A DNA stretch of 26,456 nucleotides. It comes from a virus (taxonomy: Duplodnaviria > Caudoviricetes). Position numbers and translations under genes: made by a program. Positions 4,505 to 20,507 of this stretch are shown here, one piece after another. Every line of letters begins with the position of its first letter. Position 1 is the stretch's first letter. The notes beneath the pieces are model-generated. The model was not told the DNA's origin, searched no databases, and worked only from the letters and a program-made list of their open reading frames with translations. The stretch covers positions 1-26,456 of IMG/VR virus record IMGVR_UViG_3300027887_000043, one strand, 5' to 3'.

Positions 4505-4549
4505 TGATATTTTGAGTTAGGAAAGACTAACTGGCATTGCTTTTGCCCT

Positions 4550-5200: not shown

Positions 5201-5275
5201 TGCCAAAGTTACATATTGATTTTGCGCTGAAAACGAGCGCAGCAACAAAAACCCATTAATAGAAGGGAAAACAAA

Positions 5276-6178: not shown

Positions 6179-6240
6179 CTCCCCAACAATCAATAGGTGC
6201 TTTGGCTTGTGACTGCAAAGCACCTTGAAAGGACAAGGAT

Positions 6241-6699
6241 ATGGCATTGTTATTGAAGTTGAAAAAGAAAGCTGCACCAAAAGCAAAGGCAGTAGTTATG
6301 CACAATAATCCTGTTGTTGCCAAGGAAAAGCCGAAAGCAATCATTGCCAAGCAATCGGCAAGCAATATCTTTGGAATTGATGCTTCCACTATGCTTCTCA
6401 CTGATCTTGGTCGCTTGACAAAGGCAGGGTTCATATTGGAGTTTTATAAACTCCGATCTCCCATCTGTATCAAGATGTTCGATGAAATCAAGGCTTTGCT
6501 TGCTGAAAAAGCCTTTATGGTGTCCGAGTCTGTTCATTTGGACTTCTTGCTGAAGTCCTTTGATCGCGTCTGTGTCTCTGTTTACAACAAGAGGGATAAA
6601 ATTACCATTGAACAAATGAAAGAAACAATAATGCGAACATTGCGTGATATACAGTCTAATATTGTTTCCAATATCATCACAATTCTACCCGATTGCTAA
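6241..6699 (+). CDS. hypothetical protein with Lys/Ala-rich N-terminus, 152 aa
   Basis: GAAAGGA/AAGGA SD; preceded by a 10-bp hairpin at 6195-6225. Confidence 0.8.
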   Translation: MALLLKLKKKAAPKAKAVVMHNNPVVAKEKPKAIIAKQSASNIFGIDASTMLLTDLGRLTKAGFILEFYKLRSPICIKMFDEIKALLAEKAFMVSESVHLDFLLKSFDRVCVSVYNKRDKITIEQMKETIMRTLRDIQSNIVSNIITILPDC

Positions 6700-6796
6700 A
6701 ACCATAAGGGCTAATATGCAACTAGTATTAGCCCTTCCATTGTAGCAGGCAGGCAAGAAACCAATAACATTCAACCAATAGATGGGAGTCAATACA

Positions 6797-7045
6797 ATGA
6801 TTGATATCAATGACACTTGGAAAGTTTTACTGGCAAAAGGACATAGCAAGAAACATATAGAGATTGCTTTGGCTATAACAAAGGGAATGCAAACTATAAG
6901 CATTGCTTCTCTTGATTGGCTTATAACTGATATGATTAAGAGTGATATCAATGTGAATAAGTACTTGGAAAAATCAGCACGTACCAGAAACTTCAATACG
7001 ATATATGAAAATAAAAGAACGTCTATACCTGTAAGGCGCAAGTAA
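6797..7045 (+). CDS. hypothetical protein, 82 aa (start MIDIN)
   Basis: GGGAG SD before ATG 6797; preceded by an 11-bp hairpin at 6706-6736. Confidence 0.7.
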   Translation: MIDINDTWKVLLAKGHSKKHIEIALAITKGMQTISIASLDWLITDMIKSDINVNKYLEKSARTRNFNTIYENKRTSIPVRRK

Positions 7046-7073
7046 GTATTAGAAGTAATATACAATTCAATAT

Positions 7074-7113
7074 AAGCCTCGATTGCTTTCCATTGTAATC
7101 GAGGCTTTTCTTT
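7074..7113 (+). terminator. intrinsic terminator closing the plus-strand island
   Basis: AAGCCTCGATT / AATCGAGGCTT stem followed by TTCTTT. Confidence 0.8.
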
Positions 7114-7326
7114 GTCCTTCATTTGGATATCAGCATTGATTCTATATTGCCATTTAAAGGCCCATTTTAGCGTCTACAGTCGATTTCAATTGAAAGCAAG
7201 TCCTTTGCATCCTGTTTTTTCAATTCGCCTGTAATAGCCATTTATAATCAATTCTAATAACTATTCCATTATGGCACAGTACGAGGCGGCCTACCGTCTA
7301 GTTTTTTTTGCCCTGGAACTAAGAGG

Positions 7327-7479
7327 ACCACCCGCAGTAAATTTGTAATTTTTTTTCAATTTAAGAGACATTCATATTAATAACTACCCACCATAAATTT
7401 TTTATTAAAATGTAAAATCAAAAAATTTTATTTACTATATATATTCAACAACCACCCCCGAAAAATTTGTAATTTTTTC
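7327..7479. repeat. ACCACCC-N5-AAATTTGTAATTTTTT direct repeats (two good copies, one degenerate)
   Basis: Copies at 7327-7357 and 7451-7479; degenerate copy near 7383-7406. Confidence 0.75.
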
Positions 7480-7511
7480 TTAGTATAGATACTATTCAGT
7501 TTTCAAAGAAC

Positions 7512-7574
7512 AAAAAAAATAGCCAACAATCTTCCTACCTCTCTCCTGTAGAGGTTAGGAAAACTATTGGCTAT
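7512..7574 (-). terminator. long hairpin terminator ending the minus-strand block
   Basis: ATAGCCAA / TTGGCTAT outer stem, inner TTCCTA/TAGGAA and CCTCT/AGAGG stems, followed by a U tract on the minus strand. Confidence 0.75.
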
Positions 7575-7583
7575 ATATACTGA

Positions 7584-7826
7584 TTAGTCTTTCTCTATTC
7601 TCATACTACTCTCACCTGTTTCGTAATCTATACCTACTATTAATTTTCCTCTATCTTTTGGATCAATGTTTTCTAAATTGTTCATGTAAATACTAACTTC
7701 CTTTATTCCTCTTATCATCCTCCATTCTGTCATTTCTCCTTCCAATAACATTCTTGATTCACCACAGTCATTACAGTATTCTATATCAGTATATATTTTA
7801 GAAATATTGTTATGCTTACACTTCAT
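7584..7826 (-). CDS. hypothetical protein with CxH...CxxC zinc-ribbon-like motif
   Basis: AGGAGG SD; CKH and CNDC. Confidence 0.7.
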   Translation of the reverse strand: MKCKHNNISKIYTDIEYCNDCGESRMLLEGEMTEWRMIRGIKEVSIYMNNLENIDPKDRGKLIVGIDYETGESSMRIEKD

Positions 7827-7992
7827 TTTGATCCTCCTTAACTATAATCTTTGTATATTGTTCCGTTTGTTGAATCATATACCTTTTGTCCTTATAATAG
7901 AGTACTTGTCCTTTTTCTGGAGGAAATATAAAAACAAAATCTGTTAAAAATTTTCCAGTGGAATCAAAAACTTTTGTTTTATACTTTTCCAT
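7816..7992 (-). CDS. hypothetical protein, 58 aa (MEKYKTKVFDS...)
   Basis: Hand-translated; AGGAG SD; short overlaps with neighbours. Confidence 0.6.
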   Translation of the reverse strand: MEKYKTKVFDSTGKFLTDFVFIFPPEKGQVLYYKDKRYMIQQTEQYTKIIVKEDQNEV

Positions 7993-8170
7993 TTTTATTG
8001 TCTCCTATTATTTCGATTTCGGTTAAGACTCTTTTGATTATTTTTCCTCCTATCTTTCTTTGTAAATCAATAGCATCTTGTAATTTGTCTTCAGGGAAAA
8101 AATTAACAATAACGTAATTTTTTTTTATTTTAGAAAAATGTTTTAATACATAATCAGTTGTAATATTCAT
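7979..8170 (-). CDS. hypothetical protein, 63 aa
   Basis: GAAAGGA SD. Confidence 0.7.
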   Translation of the reverse strand: MNITTDYVLKHFSKIKKNYVIVNFFPEDKLQDAIDLQRKIGGKIIKRVLTEIEIIGDNKNGKV

Positions 8171-8171
8171 T

Positions 8172-8279
8172 TTATTTCCTTTCTTCCCACAATTCTTCTA
8201 TCCAAATTCAAAAAGATATAGTACACCCCATAAAAAATATTACAATAATTCTTATTGTAAAAATAAAGAATACATTCAT
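8172..8279 (-). pseudogene. 35-codon single-TM peptide with in-frame TGA at 8208-8210 (pseudogene or UGA readthrough)
   Basis: MNVFFIFTIRIIVIFFMGCTISF*IWIEELWEERK; AAGGA SD; the read-through form ends 1 nt before the next ATG. Confidence 0.5.
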
Positions 8280-8374
8280 TTTTGATTTTCCTTCTTATAT
8301 ATTGCATAATTAACTTTAACTAAATCTCTTAAATTTTTATACTTTTCAAAAAACTCTTTTTGTTTTTCATCCAT
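8276..8374 (-). CDS. hypothetical peptide, 32 aa
   Basis: AAGGAG SD; ATGA coupling to the next ORF. Confidence 0.5.
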   Translation of the reverse strand: MDEKQKEFFEKYKNLRDLVKVNYAIYKKENQK

Positions 8375-8377
8375 AAT

Positions 8378-8554
8378 TTACTCCTTTATATTATAATATT
8401 TTTTATACCTTTGTTTATCTTCCATAGATAAACCTTCACCCTTCCAATCTAATATTCCTAAATTTTTATCTATTATCCACTGATATTCTGAAGAAAGATG
8501 AAAATAATTTCTAGGTCTTTTAAAAGACATTTCAAACATCTCTCTTTCTGTCAT
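8378..8554 (-). CDS. hypothetical protein, 58 aa (MTEREMFEMSFKRPRNYF...LGILDW)
   Basis: Hand-translated; AGGAG SD. Confidence 0.7.
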   Translation of the reverse strand: MTEREMFEMSFKRPRNYFHLSSEYQWIIDKNLGILDWKGEGLSMEDKQRYKKYYNIKE

Positions 8555-8564
8555 TTTATTTCTC

Positions 8565-8774
8565 CTACCAAAAAGAAGGAATATCTCTTTCTACTTCTTT
8601 GAAGTGAGTAACTAATTCGTCCTTATCCATAGCAAAATATATACAAGCACTTTCATCTTCCCCCGCCACAAATTGGTTGTATTTTTGACAGAGTTCCTTG
8701 TATTCACTAAGGAAAGAATTAGTTTTTCGTAATTCTTTATCTAGTTTGGAATCTTGTTCAATAGTAAAGGACAT
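8565..8774 (-). CDS. hypothetical protein, 69 aa
   Basis: GGGAGGA SD. Confidence 0.75.
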   Translation of the reverse strand: MSFTIEQDSKLDKELRKTNSFLSEYKELCQKYNQFVAGEDESACIYFAMDKDELVTHFKEVERDIPSFW

Positions 8775-8786
8775 TATTTTCCTCCC

Positions 8787-8817
8787 AAAAAAGGCAGGGG
8801 TAAGTGTACCCCTGACC
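8787..8817 (-). terminator. intrinsic terminator
   Basis: CAGGGGTA-N4-TACCCCTG followed by CC and six U on the minus strand. Confidence 0.7.
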
Positions 8818-8927
8818 TGTAGCGTCGATTGTAGAGCAATCTCGTATTAAAAATTTTTGATATATTTGTTTAGTTTTTAATAAAAAGAAGAGATTTTGTA
8901 AATAAAGTAGTGTTTTTGCTAATAAAA

Positions 8928-9272
8928 CTATTGTTTTTCTTCAGGTTTATAATCCTCTATATTATAATTAATTTTGTCCATATCAACTGACCAAGATTTG
9001 GTATATTGTTGAGTTTTAACTAAAAAAGGACGTGGGAGATTTATTTTAATAAAATTATTTACTTCAATTTGATTAGTTATTGTTACAGTTTCCTTTATTA
9101 ATTTAAAAGGTTTAGTAATTGTATAATATAAACTGAAACTAAAAAGAAAAATAAGAAAAAGTAGAAATACAAAAATTCCAATATGTTCTCCTAATAATTC
9201 TTCTCTAATGAAAATAGCAAAAGGGAATAAAGCAATAAGTATCATAATAATTATAACACAAATAAGTTCCAT
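8928..9272 (-). CDS. membrane protein with two TM helices, 114 aa (start MELIC)
   Basis: GAGGA SD; two hydrophobic stretches. Confidence 0.75.
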   Translation of the reverse strand: MELICVIIIMILIALFPFAIFIREELLGEHIGIFVFLLFLIFLFSFSLYYTITKPFKLIKETVTITNQIEVNNFIKINLPRPFLVKTQQYTKSWSVDMDKINYNIEDYKPEEKQ

Positions 9273-9273
9273 T

Positions 9274-9576
9274 TTATTCCTCTCGTAATCCAAGAGCATA
9301 TTCAACACATTGAGTATAATAATCATCCCAATTTTTTGAAGGCAAAGAATTATCATCAATTCCTTCTCGACATAAATAATTTCTAATACTCATTCCCCAA
9401 TTAGTATGGTAGGGAGAACTCCAATTAATAGGATCACGATTATACATTAACTTTATTTCTTGTTTATCATATTCTCCCAAACCTTGTAAAAGAATCTCTT
9501 TAGCTTTATGTTTAATTTCTATTGAGAGTTCTTTCCATTTATTATCATTATATTCTTTAAATTCTTGATTAGTCAT
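9274..9576 (-). CDS. hypothetical protein, 100 aa (HxxWGMxIRN motif, DUF6794-like)
   Basis: ORF with ATGA coupling; family resemblance by eye only. Confidence 0.7.
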   Translation of the reverse strand: MTNQEFKEYNDNKWKELSIEIKHKAKEILLQGLGEYDKQEIKLMYNRDPINWSSPYHTNWGMSIRNYLCREGIDDNSLPSKNWDDYYTQCVEYALGLREE

Positions 9577-9761
9577 ATTATTGGATTCCCCTTAGAAAGT
9601 TCAATGGCTTGTTGTTCAGTAAATCCTTCATCCAATAAAGCTAAATATTTAGCCCTGGTCAATTTAGCATTTAATATTATATACTCAATATGTATTTCAA
9701 TAGAATTTTTAAAATTTCTAACTGTCTCTTTCATATTTGATGGGGAATTTACACCTTCCAT
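9573..9761 (-). CDS. hypothetical protein, 62 aa (ALLDEGFTEQQAIEL)
   Basis: Packed ORF; start uncertain. Confidence 0.7.
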   Translation of the reverse strand: MEGVNSPSNMKETVRNFKNSIEIHIEYIILNAKLTRAKYLALLDEGFTEQQAIELSKGNPII

Positions 9762-9763
9762 TT

Positions 9764-9934
9764 TTATTTATCTTTATCTGGTTTTTTAGTTTTATTCCAA
9801 TAATGTTTAGCTATTTCTGCGGTTGTTCCTTTTGGTCCAAGAGCACCACAATTTTTACATTCTATTTGCCAAAGATGAATGTTAATCATTTTATAAACAA
9901 CATGATTACTTTCACAAAAAATACAGTTTTTCAT
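9764..9934 (-). CDS. Lar-family (restriction alleviation-like) zinc finger protein, 56 aa
   Basis: Hand-translated MKNCIFCES...IECKNCGALGP...AKHYWN fits the CPFC...CxxCGAxGP...WN pattern; AAGGAG SD. Confidence 0.7.
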   Translation of the reverse strand: MKNCIFCESNHVVYKMINIHLWQIECKNCGALGPKGTTAEIAKHYWNKTKKPDKDK

Positions 9935-10070
9935 AATACACTCCTTTTCTAATTTTATCTAATCTTAATTTTAAATTTTTCCGTCTATTATGTCTTTCAA
10001 AAAAATAATGAGTTGTTATTAACAAAACAGCCAACAAAATTCCAATTGGAACAAACCAGTAAATATTCAT
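9912..10070 (-). CDS. small single-TM protein with basic tail, 52 aa
   Basis: Hand-translated MNIYWFVPIGILLAVLLITTHYFF...; AGGAG SD. Confidence 0.6.
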   Translation of the reverse strand: MNIYWFVPIGILLAVLLITTHYFFERHNRRKNLKLRLDKIRKGVYYEKLYFL

Positions 10071-10071
10071 T

Positions 10072-10656
10072 TTATAATTCTCCTATTTCTTTTAAATAAC
10101 TTCTTACATCTGTTAAAGTCATTCCTGCACAAACATCCTTGTAAATAAAATTATTCCTTTTTAAATTATCTTCCCATCCTTGTTGCCGATCAACCAATAC
10201 AATTATTGTTTGTACTTTTCCAGTTTTTTCTTTTGCAGTAGTTAATGGAACTATTTTGGATTCACCATTTGTAATTACATCATCAATGATTGGAACAATG
10301 GTTCCTTTAAATTCTCCAATCATTTTAGAAAATAATCTTCCTTCTTTTGATTGATCTCTAATAGTCACATATGGTATTTTTAAATTTATAGAAATTAATG
10401 GTGCAAAACAACTGACACTATCAGGAACTTCTATAAAAGATTGAGCACCTAAATTTTTCAATGGAGTAATATACAAACCAGATATATATTCCAACGCATC
10501 TGGATTCCTTCTTGCATTTCTAAGATTGATGTATATATCAGTAGTACCTCCACTCTTCAATGGTAGATTTCCTTTTCTATCCCATTTAATAAGATCACAA
10601 TTAAAACTAATTAAATTTCTAATTACCAATTTTTTGTTTTTAATCCAATTTTCCAT
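10072..10656 (-). CDS. pyrE: orotate phosphoribosyltransferase
   Basis: LKSGGTTDIYINLR, PRPP-binding IIDDVITNGESK, VLVDRQQG; adjacent to pyrF; AAGGAG SD at MENWI. Confidence 0.88.
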   Translation of the reverse strand: MENWIKNKKLVIRNLISFNCDLIKWDRKGNLPLKSGGTTDIYINLRNARRNPDALEYISGLYITPLKNLGAQSFIEVPDSVSCFAPLISINLKIPYVTIRDQSKEGRLFSKMIGEFKGTIVPIIDDVITNGESKIVPLTTAKEKTGKVQTIIVLVDRQQGWEDNLKRNNFIYKDVCAGMTLTDVRSYLKEIGEL

Positions 10657-10669
10657 TTTAATCTTCTCC

Positions 10670-11359
10670 TTATCCCAATTGGTGTATTTCTCCAATTTCC
10701 ATTTTAGTTTTAAATAATGCTTCTAAAGGATTTTTTGCTTTTAATATAGGCTTACCAATTACCAATAAATCTGCTCCTAATTCAATTGCTTGTTTTGGAG
10801 TAACAAATCTCTTTTGATCATCTTGTTCTAAAATACTCCATTCTGGTCTAATCCCAGGACAAATTTTAATTACATCTTTTAAACTGTCTTTAATAACAAC
10901 ATCTTTTAAATCTTTTGCTGAACAAACAGAATATTTATAACCATATTCTTTTATTTTTTTAGAAAAAAATTGAACCATATTTATTACATTACTAGTATAA
11001 ATTTCTATACATTGTTCATCTGTCATGGTTGTAAGAATAGTAACTCCCACAAGAAAATCTTTTAAATAAAAACCATTTGAACATTCATTTGTATTCAATC
11101 CAGCAGCAGCATGAATTGTAATTATATCTGCCCCCGAAATTATATAATTATTGATTTCATCTATCATATCCATTGGAGTATCATGAAGTTTTGGATCAAC
11201 CATAACTTTACCATATTTTTTTAATTCTTTAATTACCAAAGGATTTGCCAAAAATCCTTTTATTTTAAATCCCCAACAGAAATCCTGAAAATTTTGAGCA
11301 TATTCTATTGCTTGTTGATTAGTCATATTTTGTAAAGCAATAATAATTTTTGAATTCAT
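10670..11359 (-). CDS. pyrF: orotidine-5'-phosphate decarboxylase (divergent)
   Basis: GFKI, DPKLHD, ITIHAAAG, VGVTILTT, PGIRP, DDQKR..TP..AI..GAD.LVIG.PI. Confidence 0.9.
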   Translation of the reverse strand: MNSKIIIALQNMTNQQAIEYAQNFQDFCWGFKIKGFLANPLVIKELKKYGKVMVDPKLHDTPMDMIDEINNYIISGADIITIHAAAGLNTNECSNGFYLKDFLVGVTILTTMTDEQCIEIYTSNVINMVQFFSKKIKEYGYKYSVCSAKDLKDVVIKDSLKDVIKICPGIRPEWSILEQDDQKRFVTPKQAIELGADLLVIGKPILKAKNPLEALFKTKMEIGEIHQLG

Positions 11360-11360
11360 C

Positions 11361-11750
11361 TTAATTTTCCTCCATTACTAAATATATGGTTTTATTTTTC
11401 ATTACTCCTAATTTAAATGCTTCCTTAGCAGAATCAACACAAACATCTATTTGATTCCCTTTTGCTTTTGGTCCCATTAAATCTTCAACAATAAAATGTC
11501 CTAAATTGGGTATAAATACTTTAGTTCCTGGTTTAACTCCTTTTTTATACATACTTCGTGAAATAGCAATAGTTCTCCGAGATTTTGGTCTAGCACCGAA
11601 AGAAGTTTTATTGTGGGGATTACCATTAATCCCTCCTGCTGATGGAGCATAAAAACTAATTTTTACATTTACTTTTGGGTAATACACTTCTTCTGTATAT
11701 CCATGAATTGGGGATAAGATGATGAAGAGCATTATTACTATTGTTTTCAT
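11361..11750 (-). CDS. secreted 3D-domain (MltA/RlpA-like) peptidoglycan-active protein
   Basis: Signal peptide; TIAIS...GTKVFIP..G.FIVED...IDV......A..LG pattern. Confidence 0.8.
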   Translation of the reverse strand: MKTIVIMLFIILSPIHGYTEEVYYPKVNVKISFYAPSAGGINGNPHNKTSFGARPKSRRTIAISRSMYKKGVKPGTKVFIPNLGHFIVEDLMGPKAKGNQIDVCVDSAKEAFKLGVMKNKTIYLVMEEN

Positions 11751-11788
11751 TCATTTCTCCTATCTCCTTTCCATGCTTGACCAAGAGA

Positions 11789-11992
11789 TTATTCCTTTAA
11801 AATTTTTTCTATAGATTTTAAAAATGTTTCACTCATCCTCCTTTGTAATTCATCTAAACAAGCATTCCATCCTTCTTTGTAAGCTCTATCCCAAGCTGCC
11901 CTTGCTACAGACATTTGCCCGGATGATCCCAATAGTACATATCTTTCTCTAAACTCTTTACTATGTTCTTGATATCATTCTTCAAATTCCAC
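11789..11992 (-). pseudogene. 67-codon ORF with in-frame TGA at codon 6 (11975-11977); pseudogene or UGA readthrough
   Basis: GTG start with GGAG SD: MEFEE*YQEHSKEF...ARAAWDRAYKEGWNACLDEL...; otherwise an unexplained ~230-nt gap. Confidence 0.6.
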
Positions 11993-12140
11993 AATTGTTC
12001 TTCTCCATATTAGAGTATTTATTTAGTCTTGTCAACAATAGATGTTGATTTCTTTTTTTTCTGTAAATTAAGTAGAAAATTAACAAGAATAAAATGCCAG
12101 CTATGGCAGCACAAATTAATTGTATAGTGTTCATCGTCAT
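11982..12140 (-). CDS. small single-TM protein next to the wall hydrolase (holin-like candidate), 52 aa
   Basis: MTMNTIQLICAAIAGILFLLIFYLIYRKKR...; ATGA overlap with the hydrolase stop; holin role inferred from position only. Confidence 0.55.
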   Translation of the reverse strand: MTMNTIQLICAAIAGILFLLIFYLIYRKKRNQHLLLTRLNKYSNMEKNNCGI

Positions 12141-12562
12141 AACTCCTTGTAAAAGATATGATTACCAATTTCTATTGTTTTTTGCATAAGATGGTGATTA
12201 TTTGTCCAACTTGGCTTAATTTGTTTAGTATGATAATGAGTTGCCCCGTTAGTATTATCTACTAATTCAAGATTTACTGCTTTACATGCAATGGCTACTT
12301 GTTTATCCAGTTTAAGATGAATAGAAAGCAAAAGATTAAAATTTGGATCACTTTCTAACCAACATGAGAACTGATATGGTTTTAAAATAACATCATGAAC
12401 AGTTTTACCATACCATCCTTGTCTTTTAAGTCTATTTATAATTACATTAGCTACTGCTTCTTGTCCTGCTGTGGATTCCCCCCGTGCTTCCCCATAAATT
12501 GTTCTAGCCATTAAATTAACACTATCCATTGCTAAAAGATAATCTTTATGTTCTTGTTTCAT
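12137..12562 (-). CDS. SleB/CwlJ-like cell wall hydrolase (Hydrolase_2), probable endolysin
   Basis: ARTIYGEARGE, AVANVIINR, PYQFSCW, TNGATHYH, IGNHIFYK. Confidence 0.92.
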   Translation of the reverse strand: MKQEHKDYLLAMDSVNLMARTIYGEARGESTAGQEAVANVIINRLKRQGWYGKTVHDVILKPYQFSCWLESDPNFNLLLSIHLKLDKQVAIACKAVNLELVDNTNGATHYHTKQIKPSWTNNHHLMQKTIEIGNHIFYKEL

Positions 12563-12756
12563 TAATTATTACTCCTATATTCTTGTTCCATACAATATCC
12601 ATTTTCATCTAAAGAAATTCTTTTCAATAAACAAATAGTATTCCCCTCTGTTTTATCACCATTATTTAAACAATTTGTATTTAAACAAGTAATTTTAACT
12701 AATGACATTAAATCTGAAGTAGCATCCACAATAATTTTCATTCTATTTGAACTCAT
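12562..12756 (-). CDS. small Cys-rich protein (DUF1540-like spacing)
   Basis: CxxxxCxNN...C...ISLDxNGxC. Confidence 0.65.
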   Translation of the reverse strand: MSSNRMKIIVDATSDLMSLVKITCLNTNCLNNGDKTEGNTICLLKRISLDENGYCMEQEYRSNN

Positions 12757-12757
12757 A

Positions 12758-13012
12758 TTACTCTACTCCTTGACAACATCTTCTATAATCTTTTACAATA
12801 TCTTCTAATATAGATTTATCTATTTCATTAATTAAATAATTCAAACAAGATTTACAAATATAAATAGTCATTTTACTTGTACTAATTCCTATAATATTTA
12901 GTGAATTTGCTTCTTTTCCTTTACAATCAAATTCAGCCTCACAATACCAATCTTTGGTAAATCCTCCATCATCCAGTTTTTTATTTTTTACTATCTTATA
13001 AGATACTATCAT
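12758..13012 (-). CDS. small zinc-finger-like protein
   Basis: CEAEFDC...ICKSC. Confidence 0.7.
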   Translation of the reverse strand: MIVSYKIVKNKKLDDGGFTKDWYCEAEFDCKGKEANSLNIIGISTSKMTIYICKSCLNYLINEIDKSILEDIVKDYRRCCQGVE

Positions 13013-13230
13013 GAATGTCTCTCCACATTGTTTGCTGGTTGTATAACTTGTTTTATACTATATTCTATTGGTTTTGAGTCCATTGGAATTTCTTCAAACA
13101 AATGAGAATTAATTCTAGACATTTTTGATTTTAAAGCAGGAAAATAAGTTTTGATATTAGTATCATAATCTGGCTTTTCAGTATAAAGCCAAAGTTGATT
13201 TTTATCATCCCTTCTGAGCCAAACTTGCAT
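13009..13230 (-). CDS. hypothetical protein, 73 aa
   Basis: GGAGGA SD; WLRRD....LWLY..KP. Confidence 0.75.
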   Translation of the reverse strand: MQVWLRRDDKNQLWLYTEKPDYDTNIKTYFPALKSKMSRINSHLFEEIPMDSKPIEYSIKQVIQPANNVERHS

Positions 13231-13248
13231 TTATTCCTCCAATTTTTA

Positions 13249-13599
13249 TCAATTAAGTTTTGCTCCAGATTTTTCTCTTTCTTTCATAGCATTAAACAAT
13301 GTTTCTATTTCATCTTCAATTAGTCTACCACAATTCTCTTCTTTTGTTCCATTTTTTTCTTCTATTTTTTCCAATATTTCTTCTGCATGTCTAGTAAATT
13401 TGTTTAACATTCCTGTTTTTGGATTTCCAAGTATTTCAATAATCATGTTAAATAAAGACTCTTCGTGTATTACAGCAACCTGTTTAACAAGTTTATCCTC
13501 TTTATTTGTAGGATTATGTTTAATAAAAAAAAGAAAAAGTTCATCACATTCATCTATAGCATTCATAATGCTATCTTTTACTTCTGTATCCAATTCCAT
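13249..13599 (-). CDS. hypothetical acidic protein, 116 aa
   Basis: AAGGGGA SD; TGA-TAA double stop. Confidence 0.75.
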   Translation of the reverse strand: MELDTEVKDSIMNAIDECDELFLFFIKHNPTNKEDKLVKQVAVIHEESLFNMIIEILGNPKTGMLNKFTRHAEEILEKIEEKNGTKEENCGRLIEDEIETLFNAMKEREKSGAKLN

Positions 13600-13602
13600 T
13601 TA

Positions 13603-13983
13603 TTAACTTCCCCTTTTATTTTTTGGATTATAAATTAATGGTTCAGTAGAAAAAAGTGTATAAAAATTTTCATCTACAAAATAATGGCTTTTAGCAACAA
13701 AAATAATCGTATTTTTATTATATTTTATTTCTTTAATACGGGAATCTTCATAAATAACTAAATCAATAAATTTCTGCAAGAATTTATCTGCAATAGGGTG
13801 ATTGGTTTTATCAGTAAATTCTAAGGGAGATGTGCTAGAAGCATAAGATTTACATTTACCAAATACTTTAAGAATTTCATCTTTATTTTCAAAAACAGAT
13901 ATTGCTTTTAGTCTTTTTCTAAGAGATTGTGTAGTATTTAAATTAAGTTTTTTCTTATTATTAGAAACCCTCGTCAAAATCAC
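13603..13983 (-). CDS. hypothetical protein, about 126 aa (start uncertain: GTG 13983 or TTG 13977)
   Basis: 3' part of track ORF 13603-14148; the upstream part overlaps another gene. Confidence 0.6.
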   Translation of the reverse strand: MILTRVSNNKKKLNLNTTQSLRKRLKAISVFENKDEILKVFGKCKSYASSTSPLEFTDKTNHPIADKFLQKFIDLVIYEDSRIKEIKYNKNTIIFVAKSHYFVDENFYTLFSTEPLIYNPKNKRGS

Positions 13984-14329
13984 TCTTTTTGATTTTAGTT
14001 GATTCCTTTTTGTTTCTTTCTTTAGCTCCTGTTTCTTTAATAGTTTCTTTAACAGTTTCTTGGATGATTTTCTCAATGTCACTTTTATTTTTTCCATCTT
14101 CAAATTCAATTTCTTCAAAATAACCCTCCCTACCAATCTCAGTAGCAATATTAGGAGAAATAGCTAATAGAAATTCTTTTATTTTAGTATATTTTTCTGA
14201 TTCTGAAAGCATATTAAAACTGCAAGTATTTTGTCCAATAAATAAATCTATATTTTTGTTATTATCATCAAACTTAATGAAATTAATGTTATCTGTATTA
14301 AAAACAAATTCTTCTATTCTAATTAACAT
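13961..14329 (-). CDS. hypothetical protein, 122 aa (start MLIRI)
   Basis: AAGGGGA SD before ATG 14329. Confidence 0.75.
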   Translation of the reverse strand: MLIRIEEFVFNTDNINFIKFDDNNKNIDLFIGQNTCSFNMLSESEKYTKIKEFLLAISPNIATEIGREGYFEEIEFEDGKNKSDIEKIIQETVKETIKETGAKERNKKESTKIKKSDFDEGF

Positions 14330-14347
14330 AGTTTTCCCCTTTAATGT

Positions 14348-14413
14348 TGGGGTTGCAGGTACAAATAGCATACATTCTTATATTCCCCTGCCATTACCGT
14401 ATGCAACGACCCC
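14348..14413 (-). other. relatively GC-rich structured intergenic element (possible ncRNA or pseudoknot)
   Basis: GGGGT...ACCCC ends; interleaved GCATAC/GTATGC and GCAGG/CCTGC pairs. Confidence 0.4.
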
Positions 14414-14422
14414 TAAAATTAA

Positions 14423-14812
14423 TTATTCCTCTTCTGATTCTTCTTCAGTAGGAATAGTTCCTTCAGCTTTATTGAGATCAATACAAGAAGAATTACCTAC
14501 CATCTCAATATGCTCTTCAATGATTACTTCTTTAATTTCTCCACGCCAACGATGTACATTAATTGGAGTTCCCCGTTTTTTATCAGCTAGATAAACTACT
14601 TTCCAATTTGTTGCAGCAATAGTTAAAGCAATTTCTTCTTCTGATTGATCAGAATTGTAAATTAGAAAATTTAATTCTCCACTTTCCCCAATTTGAATAT
14701 TATCAGCATAAATATAAATTTCTTCAGATTGAGAAATACTTTTAGGAACTTTGACACAATAGTAACAAGAGCAATGTTCAGAAAAATTTTTAACTTCATA
14801 CAATTCACTCAT
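14423..14812 (-). CDS. hypothetical acidic protein, 129 aa
   Basis: AAGGAG SD. Confidence 0.78.
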   Translation of the reverse strand: MSELYEVKNFSEHCSCYYCVKVPKSISQSEEIYIYADNIQIGESGELNFLIYNSDQSEEEIALTIAATNWKVVYLADKKRGTPINVHRWRGEIKEVIIEEHIEMVGNSSCIDLNKAEGTIPTEEESEEE

Positions 14813-14814
14813 TT

Positions 14815-15339
14815 TTATTTCTCCTTTTTAACCTCTTTTTTGTAAATATCCCGATCTTGAACAACAAATAAAAAATTTTTAAATCTTGGTTTACTTTTAC
14901 TAGACATAGTTTTAATAAAAACTTTAATCAACTCATCATCAATTTCTTTTAATACAAAGCCTTCTTCTTTAGTGGTTTTGAGAAAAGTAAATTTTTTTCC
15001 TTTGGTAGATAAATGAAATCCCAATGGATGTAAGATTTTTCTATTTATTTCATAGATTACTCCTTTTTTAATTAACCATTGTAAGTCAGATTGATTTATT
15101 GGTGTTGGTATTCCATTTGTGTGTTTATCTATTTTTAATTTTAATCTTTTTAAATCATTATCAAATCTCTTAAAAGGAAATTTCTTTACTATTCTGCCAG
15201 TTCTACAATTAATACATTTATTGGATATCAATTTACATTTTAGTTCATCCTCCTTGTCTAGTACTGATTTCAACAATTGTTTTTGGCGTAATAAACAAGT
15301 TTTAGTTGAAATCAGAGCATTATATCTTTTACATTTCAT
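14815..15339 (-). CDS. hypothetical two-domain protein (Cys4 N-terminal domain plus EINRxILHPLG domain)
   Basis: GGGGA SD; C...C...CINC; GVIYEINRKILHPLGFHL. Confidence 0.78.
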   Translation of the reverse strand: MKCKRYNALISTKTCLLRQKQLLKSVLDKEDELKCKLISNKCINCRTGRIVKKFPFKRFDNDLKRLKLKIDKHTNGIPTPINQSDLQWLIKKGVIYEINRKILHPLGFHLSTKGKKFTFLKTTKEEGFVLKEIDDELIKVFIKTMSSKSKPRFKNFLFVVQDRDIYKKEVKKEK

Positions 15340-15820
15340 AGGATTCCCCCATCAAAGGTAATAATGGAGGAAAATCATCTAAAGTTACAGGAATAAAATC
15401 AATAAATGAATCTATAATGTTAAAAAAAGGATCAGTAACTTCAATATTATTAGTAAATAAAGCAGGAATACTTAGAAGAATGGCAAATAGAATTTGAACA
15501 AATAAAAATGGGGATAAGTTTCTTCTATTGGGGATAACAAATATAACCGTGTTTGCTTTTTTTATTTTGTCAAATATAGTTAAGTTAATTAATTTTTTTA
15601 ATTCTTGTAGATAAACTGCCTTTCTATCCCGGTTATAAAGTTGAAGATAAGAAAGAATTGCTAGTTCTTTACCATCGTATTTAATTGTTCCTTTTAAAGA
15701 TAGTTGATAATTATACCCTCTTTTCTGTAGTTCCTCTTCCCATATTAATGCTGGTAAATAATCTTCCTCTTCAGCACAAATTAGAAAAGATTTCTCTTCT
15801 TTAAGTTTTAACTTTCCCAT
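15329..15820 (-). CDS. nucleoside 2-deoxyribosyltransferase-like fold protein, possibly inactive (start MGKLK)
   Basis: Pattern ELQKRGY...DKIKKANTVIFVIP...LSPFLFVQILFA....IPALF, with Q where the catalytic Glu is expected; GGAG SD. Confidence 0.45.
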   Translation of the reverse strand: MGKLKLKEEKSFLICAEEEDYLPALIWEEELQKRGYNYQLSLKGTIKYDGKELAILSYLQLYNRDRKAVYLQELKKLINLTIFDKIKKANTVIFVIPNRRNLSPFLFVQILFAILLSIPALFTNNIEVTDPFFNIIDSFIDFIPVTLDDFPPLLPLMGESYEM

Positions 15821-15838
15821 TTTTTCTCCAAAAATGTT

Positions 15839-15878
15839 AATAAAAGTAGGAAGAACCAAAGTCCCTCCTACTTTTATT
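15839..15878. terminator. bidirectional-type hairpin terminator after the histone-like gene
   Basis: AATAAAAGTAGGA / TCCTACTTTTATT 13-bp inverted repeat. Confidence 0.7.
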
Positions 15879-15909
15879 ATGTAGAAATTGTTAATGGAAA
15901 AGTTACATT

Positions 15910-16317
15910 TTAATCATCATCGTCATCATCATCGTCACTAGCTTTCTTGGGAGCAGGTGCAGTCTTAATAGCTTCCTTAGCTTCTTGCAAAATCTTACGC
16001 AATTCTTTTCCAGTAACAATCATTTCCTGTAGACAAGCACGAATATCCTTAATTGCACTCTTACTTCCCTTTTCCTTCACCTTTGTTTTGATTAGAGCTT
16101 TAGCAGTATCAAAAGCATCTTCAATTACTTCAAAGGTATCTTCAATTGCTTCCATGTTCTTCTTAGGAACAACGTAGATTACTCCAACAGGTCGCCCCTT
16201 TTGTTTTTCTTCCTTTTTAGATGCTTTCTTAGTTGCCTTCTCTTCACGCTCAACCTTACTCTTCTTCTTGGGAGCTTCTTCTTTAGCCGCTTTCTTCTTA
16301 GTTACAGGTCTTGCCAT
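15910..16317 (-). CDS. Hc1-like (histone H1-like) DNA-binding protein with Lys-rich N-tail and poly-Asp C-tail
   Basis: KGSKSAIKDIRACLQEMIVTGKELRK resembles the Hc1 KGNKAA..R.R....... K..RK helix; AAAGGA SD at MARPV. Confidence 0.65.
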   Translation of the reverse strand: MARPVTKKKAAKEEAPKKKSKVEREEKATKKASKKEEKQKGRPVGVIYVVPKKNMEAIEDTFEVIEDAFDTAKALIKTKVKEKGSKSAIKDIRACLQEMIVTGKELRKILQEAKEAIKTAPAPKKASDDDDDDDD

Positions 16318-16377
16318 TTTTTTAATCCTTTTCATCAAATTAGTTTAAGTTAGTAAGACAGTTTTAACTACATGCAA

Positions 16378-16581
16378 TTAAATATTGCTCATTCTATTAT
16401 CCTCCTTTTCTAAATTTTGTCTTAAACCATCAACAATTTGTCTAATTGCCATTGCTGGTGTTAAATGATCCCCTCCACGAATTACAAATGCAGGAGATTT
16501 TTTTGGGTCATCTAACCATTCTGCTATTTCTAACATTTCATTAATTCTTATTAATGCTTCAACATTTCTTACTACTGTCAC
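16378..16581 (-). CDS. hypothetical protein, 67 aa
   Basis: GTG start, GGAGG SD, GTGA overlap. Confidence 0.7.
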   Translation of the reverse strand: MTVVRNVEALIRINEMLEIAEWLDDPKKSPAFVIRGGDHLTPAMAIRQIVDGLRQNLEKEDNRMSNI

Positions 16582-16997
16582 AATTTGCCTCCAATGAATG
16601 GATGAGGATCTAAATTGAATAATCCTATTGGCCTATTTTTTTCTATATCAAATACTAAAACTTTACCTAAAGCACTTTTTCCCCTAAATTCTTTCAATAA
16701 AAAAAATTTAATTTCCTTGTTGTTTTCTTTGAAGTGATTAAAGTAAAGTAGTTCTATTTTTCCTGGTTCAAATATAGCGTAGTTATGGTTTAACACAGGC
16801 TTAACTTCCTTGTCAAGAGAAAAAGTTAAATCAGCCTCAAAAAAGTCAAATTTTTTGAAGGTGTAGTTTAACTTAGGGAATTTCTTGACAAAAAACTGAC
16901 AGAAATTTTTGTTATCTGTCAAAGCAAATCCTGAGTAGTAAAGTACATCCCCGGTATTAAATATGGTTTTCTTTTTAAGAATAACCTTTTTAGCCAT
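16578..16997 (-). CDS. hypothetical protein, 139 aa
   Basis: GAGGGA SD. Confidence 0.78.
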   Translation of the reverse strand: MAKKVILKKKTIFNTGDVLYYSGFALTDNKNFCQFFVKKFPKLNYTFKKFDFFEADLTFSLDKEVKPVLNHNYAIFEPGKIELLYFNHFKENNKEIKFFLLKEFRGKSALGKVLVFDIEKNRPIGLFNLDPHPFIGGKL

Positions 16998-16999
16998 AA

Positions 17000-17521
17000 C
17001 TAGTATCCCTCATTTAATCGGGCATCATCTCTTAGAGTATATCTTTCTTCTCTATAATCCCTGATTGCCTCTTTACCATAATCAACAAAATAATTACAAC
17101 TATAAGGATAAGGTCCGTAGTATTTTCTAATACTATAATAAATTAACTGTTTCCAAAACATTTTAGGATACCACTCATAACAAACATAATCATATTTCAC
17201 TGCGGCATAGGGAGGAATTTTGCAACATCCATATAGAACACTAACCCCTTGATGTCTATTTATTGGAGATTCCCCTATGTAATTTTCACAATATTCACAA
17301 GAACCTACTTTGTCAAGTACTTTTTTTAGCTTATCAAAATGTTTATCAATATCAACAAGTTGTAAAATATTAGCTTTAACGAAAAGGTTAATTTTTTGAC
17401 CAAATTTAACTTTTCTTTCAGCACTGAAACGATTTCTACACCATTGTTGAATAACTTCTATCTGTAAATCTTTTCTATCAATTTCTCGATATCGTTGTCT
17501 TAGACTATTGAATGGAAACAT
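17000..17521 (-). CDS. hypothetical protein with Cys cluster (CEYC...CC...C)
   Basis: AAGGAG SD; packed ORF. Confidence 0.78.
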   Translation of the reverse strand: MFPFNSLRQRYREIDRKDLQIEVIQQWCRNRFSAERKVKFGQKINLFVKANILQLVDIDKHFDKLKKVLDKVGSCEYCENYIGESPINRHQGVSVLYGCCKIPPYAAVKYDYVCYEWYPKMFWKQLIYYSIRKYYGPYPYSCNYFVDYGKEAIRDYREERYTLRDDARLNEGY

Positions 17522-17524
17522 GAT

Positions 17525-19291
17525 CTACTCCTTTTCAGCTTTATCAGGATTGAGTCTATCATATTCTTCTTGAATTTTATCCTCTTTTTTCTTTCTGGCA
17601 AGCAAAACTTTCTTTGGAGTACCAAAATCCAAATCACCAGTATCTTCGATCATTTGTCCGTAATAGTTGATTAAGTTGTCTTTCTTAGTTAAGTATGCGA
17701 GAGTAGGTCTAAAATTACGTCCACTTTTAAATTTGCGTAAAAATTCAAAAAACGATTTTAAATATTCTTCAACACGCATACCACCAACATGATTAGTTTG
17801 ATGTTCATCTACTAAGAAATCAATCCAATCAACAAAAGCAGAATAATTAGTAGTGATTTCTCGATTAGCTAATTTTTTGTTTCCTCCATAAAAATATTCA
17901 GAAAACAAATTAGTAACTCGTTCAGAGGTTAATTTGAAATCAGTAGTTTTGACAAATACTTCTTGCCGTGCTTCTTCTTGAGACTTCAAACAAATATTAA
18001 ACCAAGGTCTAGTTCTAGAAGTATTGAACAGGAAATCATTTAAGGGATCAAGATTCTTTCTTTTACGTTTTAATTGTCCATGACTTTTGGCAAATAATGA
18101 AAAGTTATCAATAGCTTTCATACATTTAACAATACTAATTTTATTTGAATGAAGTCTATAAGTTAAAGCTAATTTTAGGTGAGCAAAACTTTGACTAGTT
18201 ACTCGTGGAGATTTTTTAGCAAGATGGTTATTATCAACAGCATTCCAATAATTTAAAAATTTCCAGATATCCTTCTCATCAATAGGATAAACATTATTGT
18301 CTCGAACATAGTCTAAAGCTTCCTGCAAGAATCTATGTAATTCAACCTTAGTGTATAATTTTGAATCTTTTACTCCATAATCAGCAGCAGTAATCTGTAT
18401 ATCAGTTTTCAATTTATATCTTTTACTAGTCAAAGGTTTATTAGCTATCAAGATTCTTTCTTGTTTTAATTCTGCTGCTTTTTGTTTGGCTGTTTTATAT
18501 TTACTGTTAATAGTTAGCTTTAGTCTTTTACTAGTCATCTTTGCCTGCTCCTTATAATCTTGAAAAAAGGGATCACAGCGCGATGCATTTTCGCGCCTTG
18601 TATAGTTTACTGCGTATGCAGTAAACATACAAAGATAGTCTATTGGTTGTATAGTGTAGTGTATAGGTAGTTTATAGTAGGGGCTTGCAGATATTTGAAT
18701 TCCTTGATCTTTTGGGATTACGCGATAACCCTTTGGTGTTAAACGATAACCCTTTGGTGTTAAACGATAACCCCCCTTACTATTTTTGACACCGTATTTT
18801 TTATCATAAACGATAACCCCCTTCGTAAACGATAACCCCTCTTCAGAGGAAGTAAATGTTAGTTCTATTCTATATATCCTATAATCAAAATCAGGAATTA
18901 TTTCTTTGAGTTTCTTGCAAAAATTGGGTGGAGCAAGGTAATAGCGTTTTTCAGAGAATGTGCGGTCATTTCCCTCAAATTCAAATCTTGATGGAAGACC
19001 AATTAGAAGCATACCCATATTTTGTGTAATTAATTTCAAACTATTACTTATTCTTGGTACAGATGTTTTGAAATACCCGGCTAATTCTTTTTCTGAATAA
19101 TACCATTTACGTTTTTCTGTTACTGAACCTTTTATTGAGTTTAAAATTTTCTCAATTGTAGTTCCCCATCTCTTGAAATATTTCCAAGAGGATTTTCTGA
19201 TATTGCTTTCGGAAAAGAAGGGGGAATTAGGATTATTGATTTCTTCTTCCCAATAGGATTCTAATGATTGTATTATATTGTAATAATCCAC
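17525..19291 (-). CDS. putative replication initiator (N-terminal HTH-like segment, internal iterons), 588 aa
   Basis: YSEKELAGYFKTSVPRISNSLKLI is HTH-like; iteron cluster inside the gene as in lambda O-type initiators; GTG start with GGGAAAGG SD. Confidence 0.65.
   Translation of the reverse strand: MDYYNIIQSLESYWEEEINNPNSPFFSESNIRKSSWKYFKRWGTTIEKILNSIKGSVTEKRKWYYSEKELAGYFKTSVPRISNSLKLITQNMGMLLIGLPSRFEFEGNDRTFSEKRYYLAPPNFCKKLKEIIPDFDYRIYRIELTFTSSEEGLSFTKGVIVYDKKYGVKNSKGGYRLTPKGYRLTPKGYRVIPKDQGIQISASPYYKLPIHYTIQPIDYLCMFTAYAVNYTRRENASRCDPFFQDYKEQAKMTSKRLKLTINSKYKTAKQKAAELKQERILIANKPLTSKRYKLKTDIQITAADYGVKDSKLYTKVELHRFLQEALDYVRDNNVYPIDEKDIWKFLNYWNAVDNNHLAKKSPRVTSQSFAHLKLALTYRLHSNKISIVKCMKAIDNFSLFAKSHGQLKRKRKNLDPLNDFLFNTSRTRPWFNICLKSQEEARQEVFVKTTDFKLTSERVTNLFSEYFYGGNKKLANREITTNYSAFVDWIDFLVDEHQTNHVGGMRVEEYLKSFFEFLRKFKSGRNFRPTLAYLTKKDNLINYYGQMIEDTGDLDFGTPKKVLLARKKKEDKIQEEYDRLNPDKAEKE
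18723..18838. repeat. iteron cluster, putative replication origin
   Basis: Five CGATAACCC cores (18723, 18744, 18765, 18811, 18830), four as TAAACGATAACCC; the first three have a 21-bp period. Confidence 0.8.
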
Positions 19292-19332
19292 TCAGCTTTT
19301 CCTTTCCCAATTTATTTTTTATTCGTTGGCTA

Positions 19333-19362
19333 AGTGTCTCATAAAATTGGATATTTTGTCAA
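19333..19362 (-). promoter_or_regulatory. promoter for the initiator-like gene
   Basis: TTGACA (19362-19357) N18 GACACT with TGn. Confidence 0.55.
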
Positions 19363-19373
19363 GAGTTAAGAAC

Positions 19374-19403
19374 TTGACACTTTGTTTCTTTTTTTGTTAT
19401 TCT
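19374..19403 (+). promoter_or_regulatory. divergent sigma70-type promoter with no downstream ORF
   Basis: TTGACA-N18-TATTCT with TGn; back-to-back with the minus-strand -35. Confidence 0.65.
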
Positions 19404-19409
19404 TATTTT

Positions 19410-19486
19410 GCCTTTCCCAAGGTTGTTTATTTTTTTCCCTCCACCTAAACCCTAATGAGTCCTCCTGCTCATTAGGGTTTTCCTTT
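19410..19486 (+). ncRNA. putative ~75-nt C/U-rich small RNA complementary to the initiator SD region
   Basis: Bounded by promoter 19374-19403 and hairpin 19447-19480; 19411-19420 = 19301-19310 and 19426-19435 = 19311-19320. Confidence 0.5.
19447..19486. terminator. bidirectional intrinsic terminator
   Basis: AAACCCTAATGAG-N8-CTCATTAGGGTTT perfect 13-bp stem. Confidence 0.8.
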
Positions 19487-19877
19487 ATTCCTCCATAAAA
19501 TCTTTAAATACCTCATAAAACCTCCTTATTTCCTTGGTAATAAATCGTTTTTTTACTTTTACAAACGGGGGTTTATCTGTTTCACCAGAATAATAGGCAA
19601 TGAACCATTTAATGATAAATTTGACAAATTCTTCCATTGTCCAAATACGATCACGATCAATATCACTTAAAATATTCTGTAATTCTAGAAAATCTTTTAT
19701 ATCAATACCAGCAAAGACCGGATAACGCTTTTCTCTGGTTTCAAAATAATATTGTAGTTGTGATTTAGTTTTTGGTTCTTCATCTTTGACTAATTTCTCT
19801 AATAATTTTATTCGGTTAAGATAGGTTGTCTCTGTTCTTTTTCTATTTAGGGCTTTGGGTAGGGTACTTTCTCTCAT
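19485..19877 (-). CDS. hypothetical protein, 130 aa (start MREST); C-terminal half possibly ribbon-helix-helix-like
   Basis: AAGGA SD; strand-helix-helix pattern by eye (RYPVFAGID...LELQNIL...TMEEFVKFIIKWF). Confidence 0.7.
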   Translation of the reverse strand: MRESTLPKALNRKRTETTYLNRIKLLEKLVKDEEPKTKSQLQYYFETREKRYPVFAGIDIKDFLELQNILSDIDRDRIWTMEEFVKFIIKWFIAYYSGETDKPPFVKVKKRFITKEIRRFYEVFKDFMEE

Positions 19878-19912
19878 AAAATTTTCCTTGTACTTTTGTT
19901 CTTGTATTGTTA

Positions 19913-19921
19913 TGGTATAAT
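19913..19921 (+). promoter_or_regulatory. extended -10 promoter for the packaging operon
   Basis: TGgTATAAT with no recognisable -35. Confidence 0.5.
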
Positions 19922-19958
19922 TCAATCTGAAACCAAAACTCATGGAGGGACTTCTAAT

Positions 19959-20507
19959 ATGAAAAGACTAAAGTTAAAAGTATCTAAAAATGGTAAGGAT
20001 CAACCTTATCATGGGGAAAGTATCTCTGTCAAGGGAAAAAGTAATGAGTTTGTTAAGTCTAAGATAGTTTTTTATTTAACTAAGGGATTAGATATAAATG
20101 ATGCTTGCAAACTTGCTGATTGTTCCGATAAAAAATTTAAACAATTCAGATTAGACCCTGATTTTGAAGATATAATTCAAAAGAGTTTTGCTGAGAATGA
20201 ATTAGAACATATTGATAATATTGGTACTGCTGGAAGTAAAGGATTTTGGCAAGCTTCTGCTTGGTATTTAGAAAGAAGATTTCCTGAGAAATATGGTAGA
20301 AAAGATACAGTTGTTCATGAATATCGCATTAAAATGCAAACCTTACAAAGAGTGTTTTTGGAAGTATTAGATGAAGTTGATCCTAATCTTAGATATAAAG
20401 TTTTAAATAGATTGCGTAGTTATAAATTTGATGGTTCTGCTGCTTTAGTAGGAGATTTTTCTTTAAAAAAACTACTTCCTTCCCCGGATGATGTTGTAGA
20501 TATTTAA
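19959..20507 (+). CDS. terS: terminase small subunit (start MKRLK)
   Basis: HTH-like GLDINDACKLADCS, WQASAWYLERRFPEKYG motif, directly upstream of TerL; GGAGG SD. Confidence 0.75.
   Translation: MKRLKLKVSKNGKDQPYHGESISVKGKSNEFVKSKIVFYLTKGLDINDACKLADCSDKKFKQFRLDPDFEDIIQKSFAENELEHIDNIGTAGSKGFWQASAWYLERRFPEKYGRKDTVVHEYRIKMQTLQRVFLEVLDEVDPNLRYKVLNRLRSYKFDGSAALVGDFSLKKLLPSPDDVVDI

Follow-up and report, generated by a model that had tools for sequence, protein, structure and literature searches.

A predicted phage small RNA carries an antisense copy of the leader of a putative replication initiator gene

The 193-bp spacer between two leftward genes of an uncultivated phage, IMG/VR virus record IMGVR_UViG_3300027887_000043 (analysed in its entirety, 26,456 bp with a completeness estimate of 52%, and referred to as the window), is best read as encoding a short, terminated plus-strand transcript, whose predicted 5' tail is an antisense copy of the leader of the adjacent large gene. 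The product of this large gene, a protein of 588 amino acids (aa), is likely a lambda O-like replication initiator, and a 130-aa gene bounds the spacer on the other side. The transcript is the preferred reading because promoter hexamers, their spacing and the plus-strand terminator recur syntenically in other phage lineages and the terminator stem shows compensatory changes. We propose further that the RNA of approximately 80 nt pairs over the Shine-Dalgarno (SD) sequence of the initiator gene and lowers translation of the 588-aa protein, a possibility that we take seriously while stopping somewhat short of even confidence.

The predicted small-RNA promoter (19374..19403, plus strand) comprises TTGACA (19374-19379), an 18-nt spacer with a TG at 19395-96 and TATTCT (19398-19403), a match in 10 of 12 positions. 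With the start placed 7 nt past the −10 element and the end in the T tail, the putative RNA covers 19410..19491 (plus strand), and these 82 nt fold with −22.6 kcal/mol (z −6.5), as good a fold being reached by none of 200 shuffles. The terminator hairpin (19447..19480, plus strand) has fully (100%) complementary 13-nt arms (19447-19459/19468-19480) around the loop TCCTCCTG and is followed by TTTTCCTTTATT, a T-rich tail which extends to the stop codon of the 130-aa gene (19485-19487). This arrangement, a G+C-containing stem and then a T tract on the transcribed strand, is that of an intrinsic terminator. Besides the hairpin and the U tail, the predicted fold has a single-stranded 5' tail, with a weak 5' hairpin in the window, and leaves unpaired the C-rich motif CCCTCCACC (19437..19445, plus strand), which includes CCCTCC at 19437-42. 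Back to back with the plus-strand promoter, a putative promoter of the 588-aa gene (19333..19362, minus strand) was read by eye as TTGACA (19362-19357), an 18-nt spacer ending in TGn and GACACT (19338-19333); a promoter scanner called no minus-strand promoter at 19362-19333. Rfam 15 gave no match to the RNA at the gathering threshold and five weak matches, all with E of at least 1.9.

An earlier reading made from the letters of the window alone (the sequence-only reading) had described the paired TTGACA elements, the plus-strand promoter, the 13-bp hairpin and a CCCUCC in the RNA, all of which were found again at their coordinates. Its statement that no open reading frame follows the plus-strand promoter is not strictly correct, as frames with TTG starts (40 and 38 aa) run through this region. 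A small protein in place of the RNA was considered and rejected, these frames being broken by indels in the relatives (one of 7 columns). The hairpin as a terminator of the 130-aa gene was likewise discarded, the T tract lying on the opposite strand for that purpose in the window as well as in the related contigs L003/L002 and L054. As a separate observation, TCCCTCCA (19436-19443), unpaired as UCCCUCCA in the predicted RNA, is the exact 8-nt complement of the ribosome-binding site (RBS) UGGAGGGA of TerS (19937-19944), a complement that is absent in the related contig L004.

The connection to the initiator gene is provided by a two-block direct repeat. The putative 36-nt leader of the 588-aa gene (19292..19327, minus strand) contains AAAAAAUAAA-UUGGGAAAGG, which spans the SD region (19320-19301), and the 5' tail of the predicted RNA (19411..19435, plus strand) holds as its antisense copy the blocks CCTTTCCCAA and TTTATTTTTT separated by GGTTG. 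In plus-strand terms, CCTTTCCCAA is found at 19301-10 and 19411-20 and TTTATTTTTT at 19311-20 and 19426-35, only the second repeat copy having the five extra bases between the blocks. The repeat claimed by the sequence-only reading is therewith present, and its two-block pattern, occurring twice in the window, was met in none of 100 shuffles. Within the window GGGAAAGG is confined to the two repeat copies, and every one of the three contigs carrying CCTTTCCCA has precisely two copies of it. By longest exact complement, the initiator RBS is the top match of the RNA both among the 86 SD-bearing starts of the window and among the 22 of L004. Independently of the repeat, an 8-nt inverted repeat brackets the whole leader including the start codon (window 19289-19296/19331-19338; L004 3752-3759/3796-3803, with the arms CACTTAGC / GCTAAGTG), one arm overlapping the putative −10 element; the one difference that the window shows in this inverted repeat would be a G-U pair on minus-strand RNA and a C-A mismatch on plus-strand RNA.

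Alignment-based scans of viral and metagenome contigs returned the same three contigs only, phage records searched by DNA or protein gave no close relative, and the 588-aa protein alone had no match in viral contigs and found only itself in a search of 5.8 billion proteins. In the closest relatives, L003 and L002, the counterpart of the 130-aa protein has 134 aa and is 48-50% identical to it; L003 also encodes a 693-aa protein 37% identical to the 588-aa protein, L002 stopping 45 bases into this gene. Their spacer has the layout of the window and retains both −35 elements, TATTCT with its spacing, the RNA start, the RBS block and the hairpin with its TTTTCTTTTTT tail on the same strand, as well as TTGACA and TGnRACACT on the minus strand; the sequence between the conserved blocks has diverged from that of the window. 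Two-sided changes affect 4 of 10 pairs of the terminator stem among the window, L004 and L006, which 8 of 500 shuffles reach, and compensatory stem changes are also found between L003 and L002.

In L003/L002, CCTTTCCCACAA stands at both places where the window has CCTTTCCCAA (CCCAA to CCCACAA twice); the two copies therefore changed together. The second block is complementary again with a different sequence (GUUUCUAC versus GUAUAAAC, 7 of 8 matching). At −25.7 kcal/mol, the resulting L003 duplex of 12 + 9 pairs is equalled in 1 of 1000 and in 0 of 1000 shuffles, and none of 2000 shuffles attains the word of 12 that RNA and RBS share. The same change in both copies is also what would be expected of a common protein site, and the two CCTTTCCCA blocks might be DNA operators at which a phage regulator, for instance the 130-aa protein, binds at both promoters, the transcript being incidental. 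The second copy covers +1 to +11 of the small-RNA promoter and the first approximately +17 to +26 of the mRNA promoter, positions at which a bound protein could block RNA polymerase, the likeness of the copies runs upstream of the putative RNA start, and their spacing is similar, 110 bp in the window versus 113 bp in the relatives. We nevertheless consider operators quite unlikely: there are two copies only, without dyad symmetry, the 5-bp shift of the second block suits a bulged duplex better than a protein site, contigs L008 and L054 retain the promoters without a comparable repeat, the likely iterons of the initiator have the different sequence GGGTTATCG, and the conserved plus-strand terminator would be left unexplained.

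If the RNA acts by pairing, a constitutive small RNA from 19374-19491 (plus strand) would meet UUGGGAAAGG with its 5' CCUUUCCCAA and, across a 5-nt bulge, AAAAAAUAAA with UUUAUUUUUU, the seed in the small RNA being CCUUUCCC. The duplex would cover about −30 to −11 of the leader of approximately 36 nt, so that the 30S subunit could be occluded and less initiator would be made, with a possible effect on replication.

A number of observations weigh against this pairing as the function of the RNA. At −20.6 kcal/mol, the window duplex is equalled in 193 of 1000 shuffles of the RNA and 185 of 1000 shuffles of the leader, because the pairing is of a U-rich with an A-rich sequence; 96 of 2000 local shuffles attain the shared word of 10 between RNA and RBS; and the initiator leader ranks 2nd of 69 leaders by duplex with the RNA, a pyrimidine-rich RNA facing purine-rich leaders so that composition accounts for part of the match. 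The 10-mer taken alone, with at most one mismatch, is at expectation (2 found, mean 2.62). The weak 5' hairpin GCCUU/AAGGU hides part of the seed in the predicted fold of the window, and the likeness of the two copies runs a few bases upstream of the putative RNA start, which RNA pairing does not explain. Promoter-like sites in the window (positions 1-19999) number 102 with 102 expected. The co-variation amounts to one event between two lineages, L003 and L002 being near-identical outside the hairpin. In L008, RNA and RBS share only the 7-mer CCCCTCC (412 of 2000 shuffles; duplex 773 of 1000 and 487 of 1000), and L054 is without specific leader complementarity (945 of 1000 and 698 of 1000 shuffles as good). 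As to the target, neither Pfam nor PHROGs gave a match for the 588-aa protein itself, Foldseek against the PDB gave none at E ≤ 0.001 and only generic winged-helix matches at E ≥ 0.15, and a first genome scan for the host found no relative.

Taken to their limit, such figures would suit a locus without dedicated function, in which the hairpin serves only to keep stray plus-strand transcription out of the small gene and the late region, and the repeat is low-complexity chance or neutral duplication. The weak window statistics, promoter-like sites at expectation among them, and the T/C-rich composition of the region speak for this account. It is in our view very unlikely, since promoter hexamers are kept at fixed spacing in four lineages, the terminator has changed in a compensatory manner, and L003 shows a significant repeat whose two copies carry the identical change.

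The four lineages, the window, L003/L002, L008 and L054, share the order of a small leftward gene, an opposite-strand terminator, a divergent promoter pair and a large gene, with flanking proteins only 25-50% identical (the large and small proteins of L008 are 29% and 25% identical to those of the window). L008 has TTGACT-17-TATTCT back to back with TTGACA-17-TATAGT and then a 10-bp hairpin, the tail before the hairpin being approximately 21 nt and the T tract weak. L054, L055 and L056, identical at the locus, have TTGACA-16-TATAAT (12/12), a 28-nt C-rich tail, an 11-bp hairpin and UUUUUU at the stop codon of the homologue of the small gene. TTGAC(A/T)-17/18-TATTCT is kept in the window, L003/L002 and L008 despite diverged spacers, and the window, L003/L002 and L054 have, 33-37 nt further on, a stable hairpin whose T tract is on the same strand and which stops at the small gene's stop codon. 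With these signals in four lineages and a compensatory stem, the short terminated plus-strand RNA proposed by the sequence-only reading is supported as a prediction. Its anticipated RBS pairing finds support in L003/L002, where the duplex beats shuffles, and none from the duplex energy in the window or from L008 and L054; the duplication, similarly, recurs in L003/L002 with the same change in both copies, and nothing comparable to the two-block repeat of the window was found in L008 and L054.

As the RNA gene is kept without a specific leader match in L008 and L054, pairing to the RBS is not the conserved core function of the RNA family; what the lineages conserve is the RNA gene itself, the anti-RBS copy belonging to the branch of the window. 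The RNA gene thus appears older than the specific match, L008 and L054 carrying only generic C-rich anti-SD motifs, so that the RBS copy is most plausibly a target specific to one lineage, which gained it when a leader block was duplicated. On a wider scale, a clade of uncultivated soil and wetland phages may share an undescribed small-RNA family, placed as OOP is and next to an O-like initiator with an internal origin, in one branch of which a generic anti-SD RNA became an initiator-specific repressor by leader-block copying, the copies co-evolving thereafter, a scenario which we offer tentatively and regard as rather improbable in its entirety.

A different role is suggested by phage lambda. 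OOP is a 77-nt RNA that acts on cII mRNA, the 3' part of which it overlaps, and lambda O carries iterons within its own coding sequence. The oop RNA is described as antisense to cII, the promoter pO as influencing replication through interference, and OOP as being without effect on O-P mRNA (PMC3985674). Similar to OOP, a predicted short terminated RNA lies between an early small gene and the initiator gene and points back in all four lineages. By analogy, the RNA or its promoter might act on a putative read-through RNA of the 130-aa gene by antisense pairing, RNase III-type cleavage or interference, the RBS copy being an evolutionary remnant or merely a secondary target. The sole relationship kept in 4/4 lineages is indeed positional, the RNA facing the 3' end of the small gene and stopping at its stop codon; the small gene has no T-tract terminator on its own strand, so that its read-through RNA would contain the full complement of the small RNA; lambda has the identical order cII, oop, O (PMC3985674); and the initiator gene has internal iteron-like repeats. 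We still hold this role to be unlikely, as just the stop codon and a few more bases of the small gene's coding sequence are overlapped, in contrast to oop, which is antisense to the cII transcript (PMC3985674), and the co-changing anti-RBS block of the window and L003/L002 would be unexplained. In contrast to OOP, the hairpin in the window ends at 19480 ahead of the stop codon at 19485-19487, so that only the tail overlaps the upstream gene, the specific match is to the initiator RBS, and no sequence or Rfam relationship was found.

Pairing over the initiator RBS, the reading we prefer, has parallels among plasmids. R1 CopA and pT181 RNAI are countertranscripts that are encoded opposite plasmid rep genes, overlap them and block their translation. 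In shape the predicted RNA resembles pMV158 RNAII, which consists of one hairpin between an unpaired 5' tail and a U tail and blocks repB translation (PMC4485353). The predicted RNA has the same composition of 5' tail, hairpin-terminator and U tail, its tail is complementary to the translation start region of an initiator gene (10 + 10 nt in the window, 12 + 9 pairs in L003), and it is proposed to inhibit translation. Unlike RNAII it is not encoded opposite its target: the putative starts at ~19410 (plus strand) and ~19327 (minus strand) are approximately 83 bp apart and point away from each other, complementarity is achieved via a direct repeat with both promoters between the starts, and the carrier is a phage rather than a plasmid. 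L054 and L013 may possess an overlapping countertranscript form too.

In geometry, the pair resembles IstR-1/tisB, OhsC/shoB, OrzO/zorO and AgrB/dinQ, which are adjacent, divergent and non-overlapping with short complementarity to the target 5' untranslated region (UTR), and the targets of which are small toxic proteins with long leaders, the antitoxins according to a review not covering the translation start site (PMC4147584). Likewise, the predicted RNA adjoins its proposed target divergently without overlap and has short 5'-UTR complementarity; unlike in those systems, the target is a 588-aa winged-helix protein with a leader of approximately 36 nt, and the match lies over the SD sequence. 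Phage small RNAs that pair by short blocks with a nearby gene are RalA/RalR of the rac prophage, phage P1 c4 and P4 CI, the latter two being processed from the target's own transcript. They are alike in not being encoded opposite their target; targets and gene order differ.

The initiator label given by the sequence-only reading to the 588-aa gene (17525..19291, minus strand, GTG start) is supported, by inference, through a winged helix, PHROG matches within the protein family and internal repeats. In the AF2 model, a winged helix predicted with confidence at the N terminus is followed by a disordered linker and a C-terminal domain made of helices; the only matches of a sequence-profile search in the PDB had E 0.29 and 0.79. 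The family comprises 26 representatives among 1.84 billion proteins. Two of 25 members match phrog_270, one of them, P0019, also phrog_428 and phrog_678, all three annotated as replication initiation or O-like; member P0005 matches RepL above the RepL cut-off, and HTH_36 is matched within the family just below the HTH_36 cut-off, all family matches being via the N-terminal domain. The linker-coding part of the 588-aa gene contains five exact copies of GGGTTATCG with 19- and 21-bp spacing (18723..18838, minus strand), a candidate iteron array, and an 11-bp repeat after it; the stretch 18648-18678 likewise belongs to the repeat region of the gene. Six matches to GGGTTATCG occur in the window, a number reached by 0 of 100 shuffles. 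Repeats with a 19-22-bp period, followed by short A+T-rich repeats, lie inside the linker-coding part of the large gene in 4/4 lineages, the arrays of 20-22-bp period in L003 (5089-5210), L008 (3201-3279) and L054 (1871-2062) each having their own sequence. They likely represent a replication origin embedded in the initiator gene. That these iterons are the duplicated leader block was rejected on account of their other sequence.

The remainder of the window has minus-strand genes left of 19291 and, from ~19959, plus-strand genes for TerS, TerL, portal and a protease/capsid fusion, with the 130-aa gene (19485..19877, minus strand), at the stop codon of which the predicted small RNA ends, as the lone minus-strand gene between the module and the late genes. 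No tRNA or tmRNA was found in the window, and proteins neighbouring the module are mostly without matches in Pfam and PHROGs. In lambda, pR' gives rise to a short terminated leader RNA. The gene arrangement permits a comparable start of the late operon, where a phage antiterminator would allow a constitutive short leader to be prolonged, antisense through the 130-aa gene, as far as the terminase and portal genes: the RNA shares its strand with the structural genes and lies approximately 470 bp upstream of them, and a near-consensus promoter with a close terminator (strong in three lineages, weak in L008) is found in all four without a common target sequence. A late leader is decidedly unlikely, however, with a 390-bp opposite-strand gene between terminator and TerS, a separate extended −10 element of TerS, TGGTATAAT, plausible TerS promoters in L008 and L054, no Q-like gene recognised among the window proteins by Pfam and PHROGs, and the anti-RBS copy unexplained. 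The TerS −10 element (stretch 19902-19927) is itself kept between the window and L003, and this stretch resembles, at 73-82% over 22-26 nt, both the small-RNA promoter spacer (19379-19400) and the initial codons of the 588-aa gene.

GAAAGG, regarded by the sequence-only reading as the SD sequence of the left-end genes, lies within 30 nt upstream of 8 of the 37 listed minus-strand starts, the 588-aa gene among them, and is to this extent borne out. Six left-end genes (minus-strand starts 405, 1903, 2325, 3601, 4281 and 8170) have a near-identical leader, (T/A)AGAAAGGA(A/T)AAA…ATG, which suggests a common translation signal or repeated module boundaries. Short contigs identical to stretches of the window are present in the soil metagenome runs X3-X6, from samples other than the wetland source; a contig of X5 covers 19283-19524 with 0 differences, and the four DNA runs compared hold no natural variation. 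The same or a near-identical phage is present in several samples.

More distant relatives, at about 53% terminase identity, have a different spacer design. In L013 (3770-3830), and at the matching place in L019, L024, L026, L027, L034 and L035, a long hairpin lies downstream of a strong TTGACA/TATAAT promoter that points leftward. The hairpin loop, GGGGTTGGTC(G/T)CCTG on the plus strand, is near-invariant on differing stems, and the structure may act as an RNA element of the 5' UTR or as a site for a protein. Candidate overlapping countertranscripts occur in L054 (1400-1494, minus strand) and L013 (3634-3715, plus strand), each with a promoter-like site within the first codons of the large gene and a hairpin with T tail just past the anti-RBS; the −35 element of the L013 candidate coincides with conserved codons and its conservation proves nothing. 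L009 (~1330-1410) and L040 (~470-550) have a tandem duplication of approximately 39 bp that holds RBS and start codon (…CATATTAATCTCCTTTCCTTTTAAGGG… twice), another instance of leader-block duplication in the phage clade. A terminase scan for the host found only a contig binned as a Thermoplasmata metagenome-assembled genome (MAG) and a short Pirellulales MAG contig. The former may be L051, a 27.6-kb contig binned in a Thermoplasmata archaeon MAG with a TerL 53% identical to that of the window; L051 may be a mis-binned phage contig and gives nothing firm on the host.

As predicted here, the locus would combine a familiar control logic with an unusual layout. Known replication countertranscripts overlap their targets, and known non-overlapping neighbours of such kind control small toxins; if confirmed, the locus would be a clear case of initiator dosage control by a non-overlapping antisense RNA and a new phage small-RNA family outside all Rfam models. 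The analysis also provides a first functional handle on the orphan 588-aa family. The four lineages form a graded series from a generic C-rich RNA to an exact anti-RBS seed of 10-12 nt, which the possible overlapping countertranscripts of more distant relatives would extend and which could show how such regulators arise. If the clade scenario is true, these phages would offer a natural snapshot of a trans-acting antisense regulator arising beside its target.

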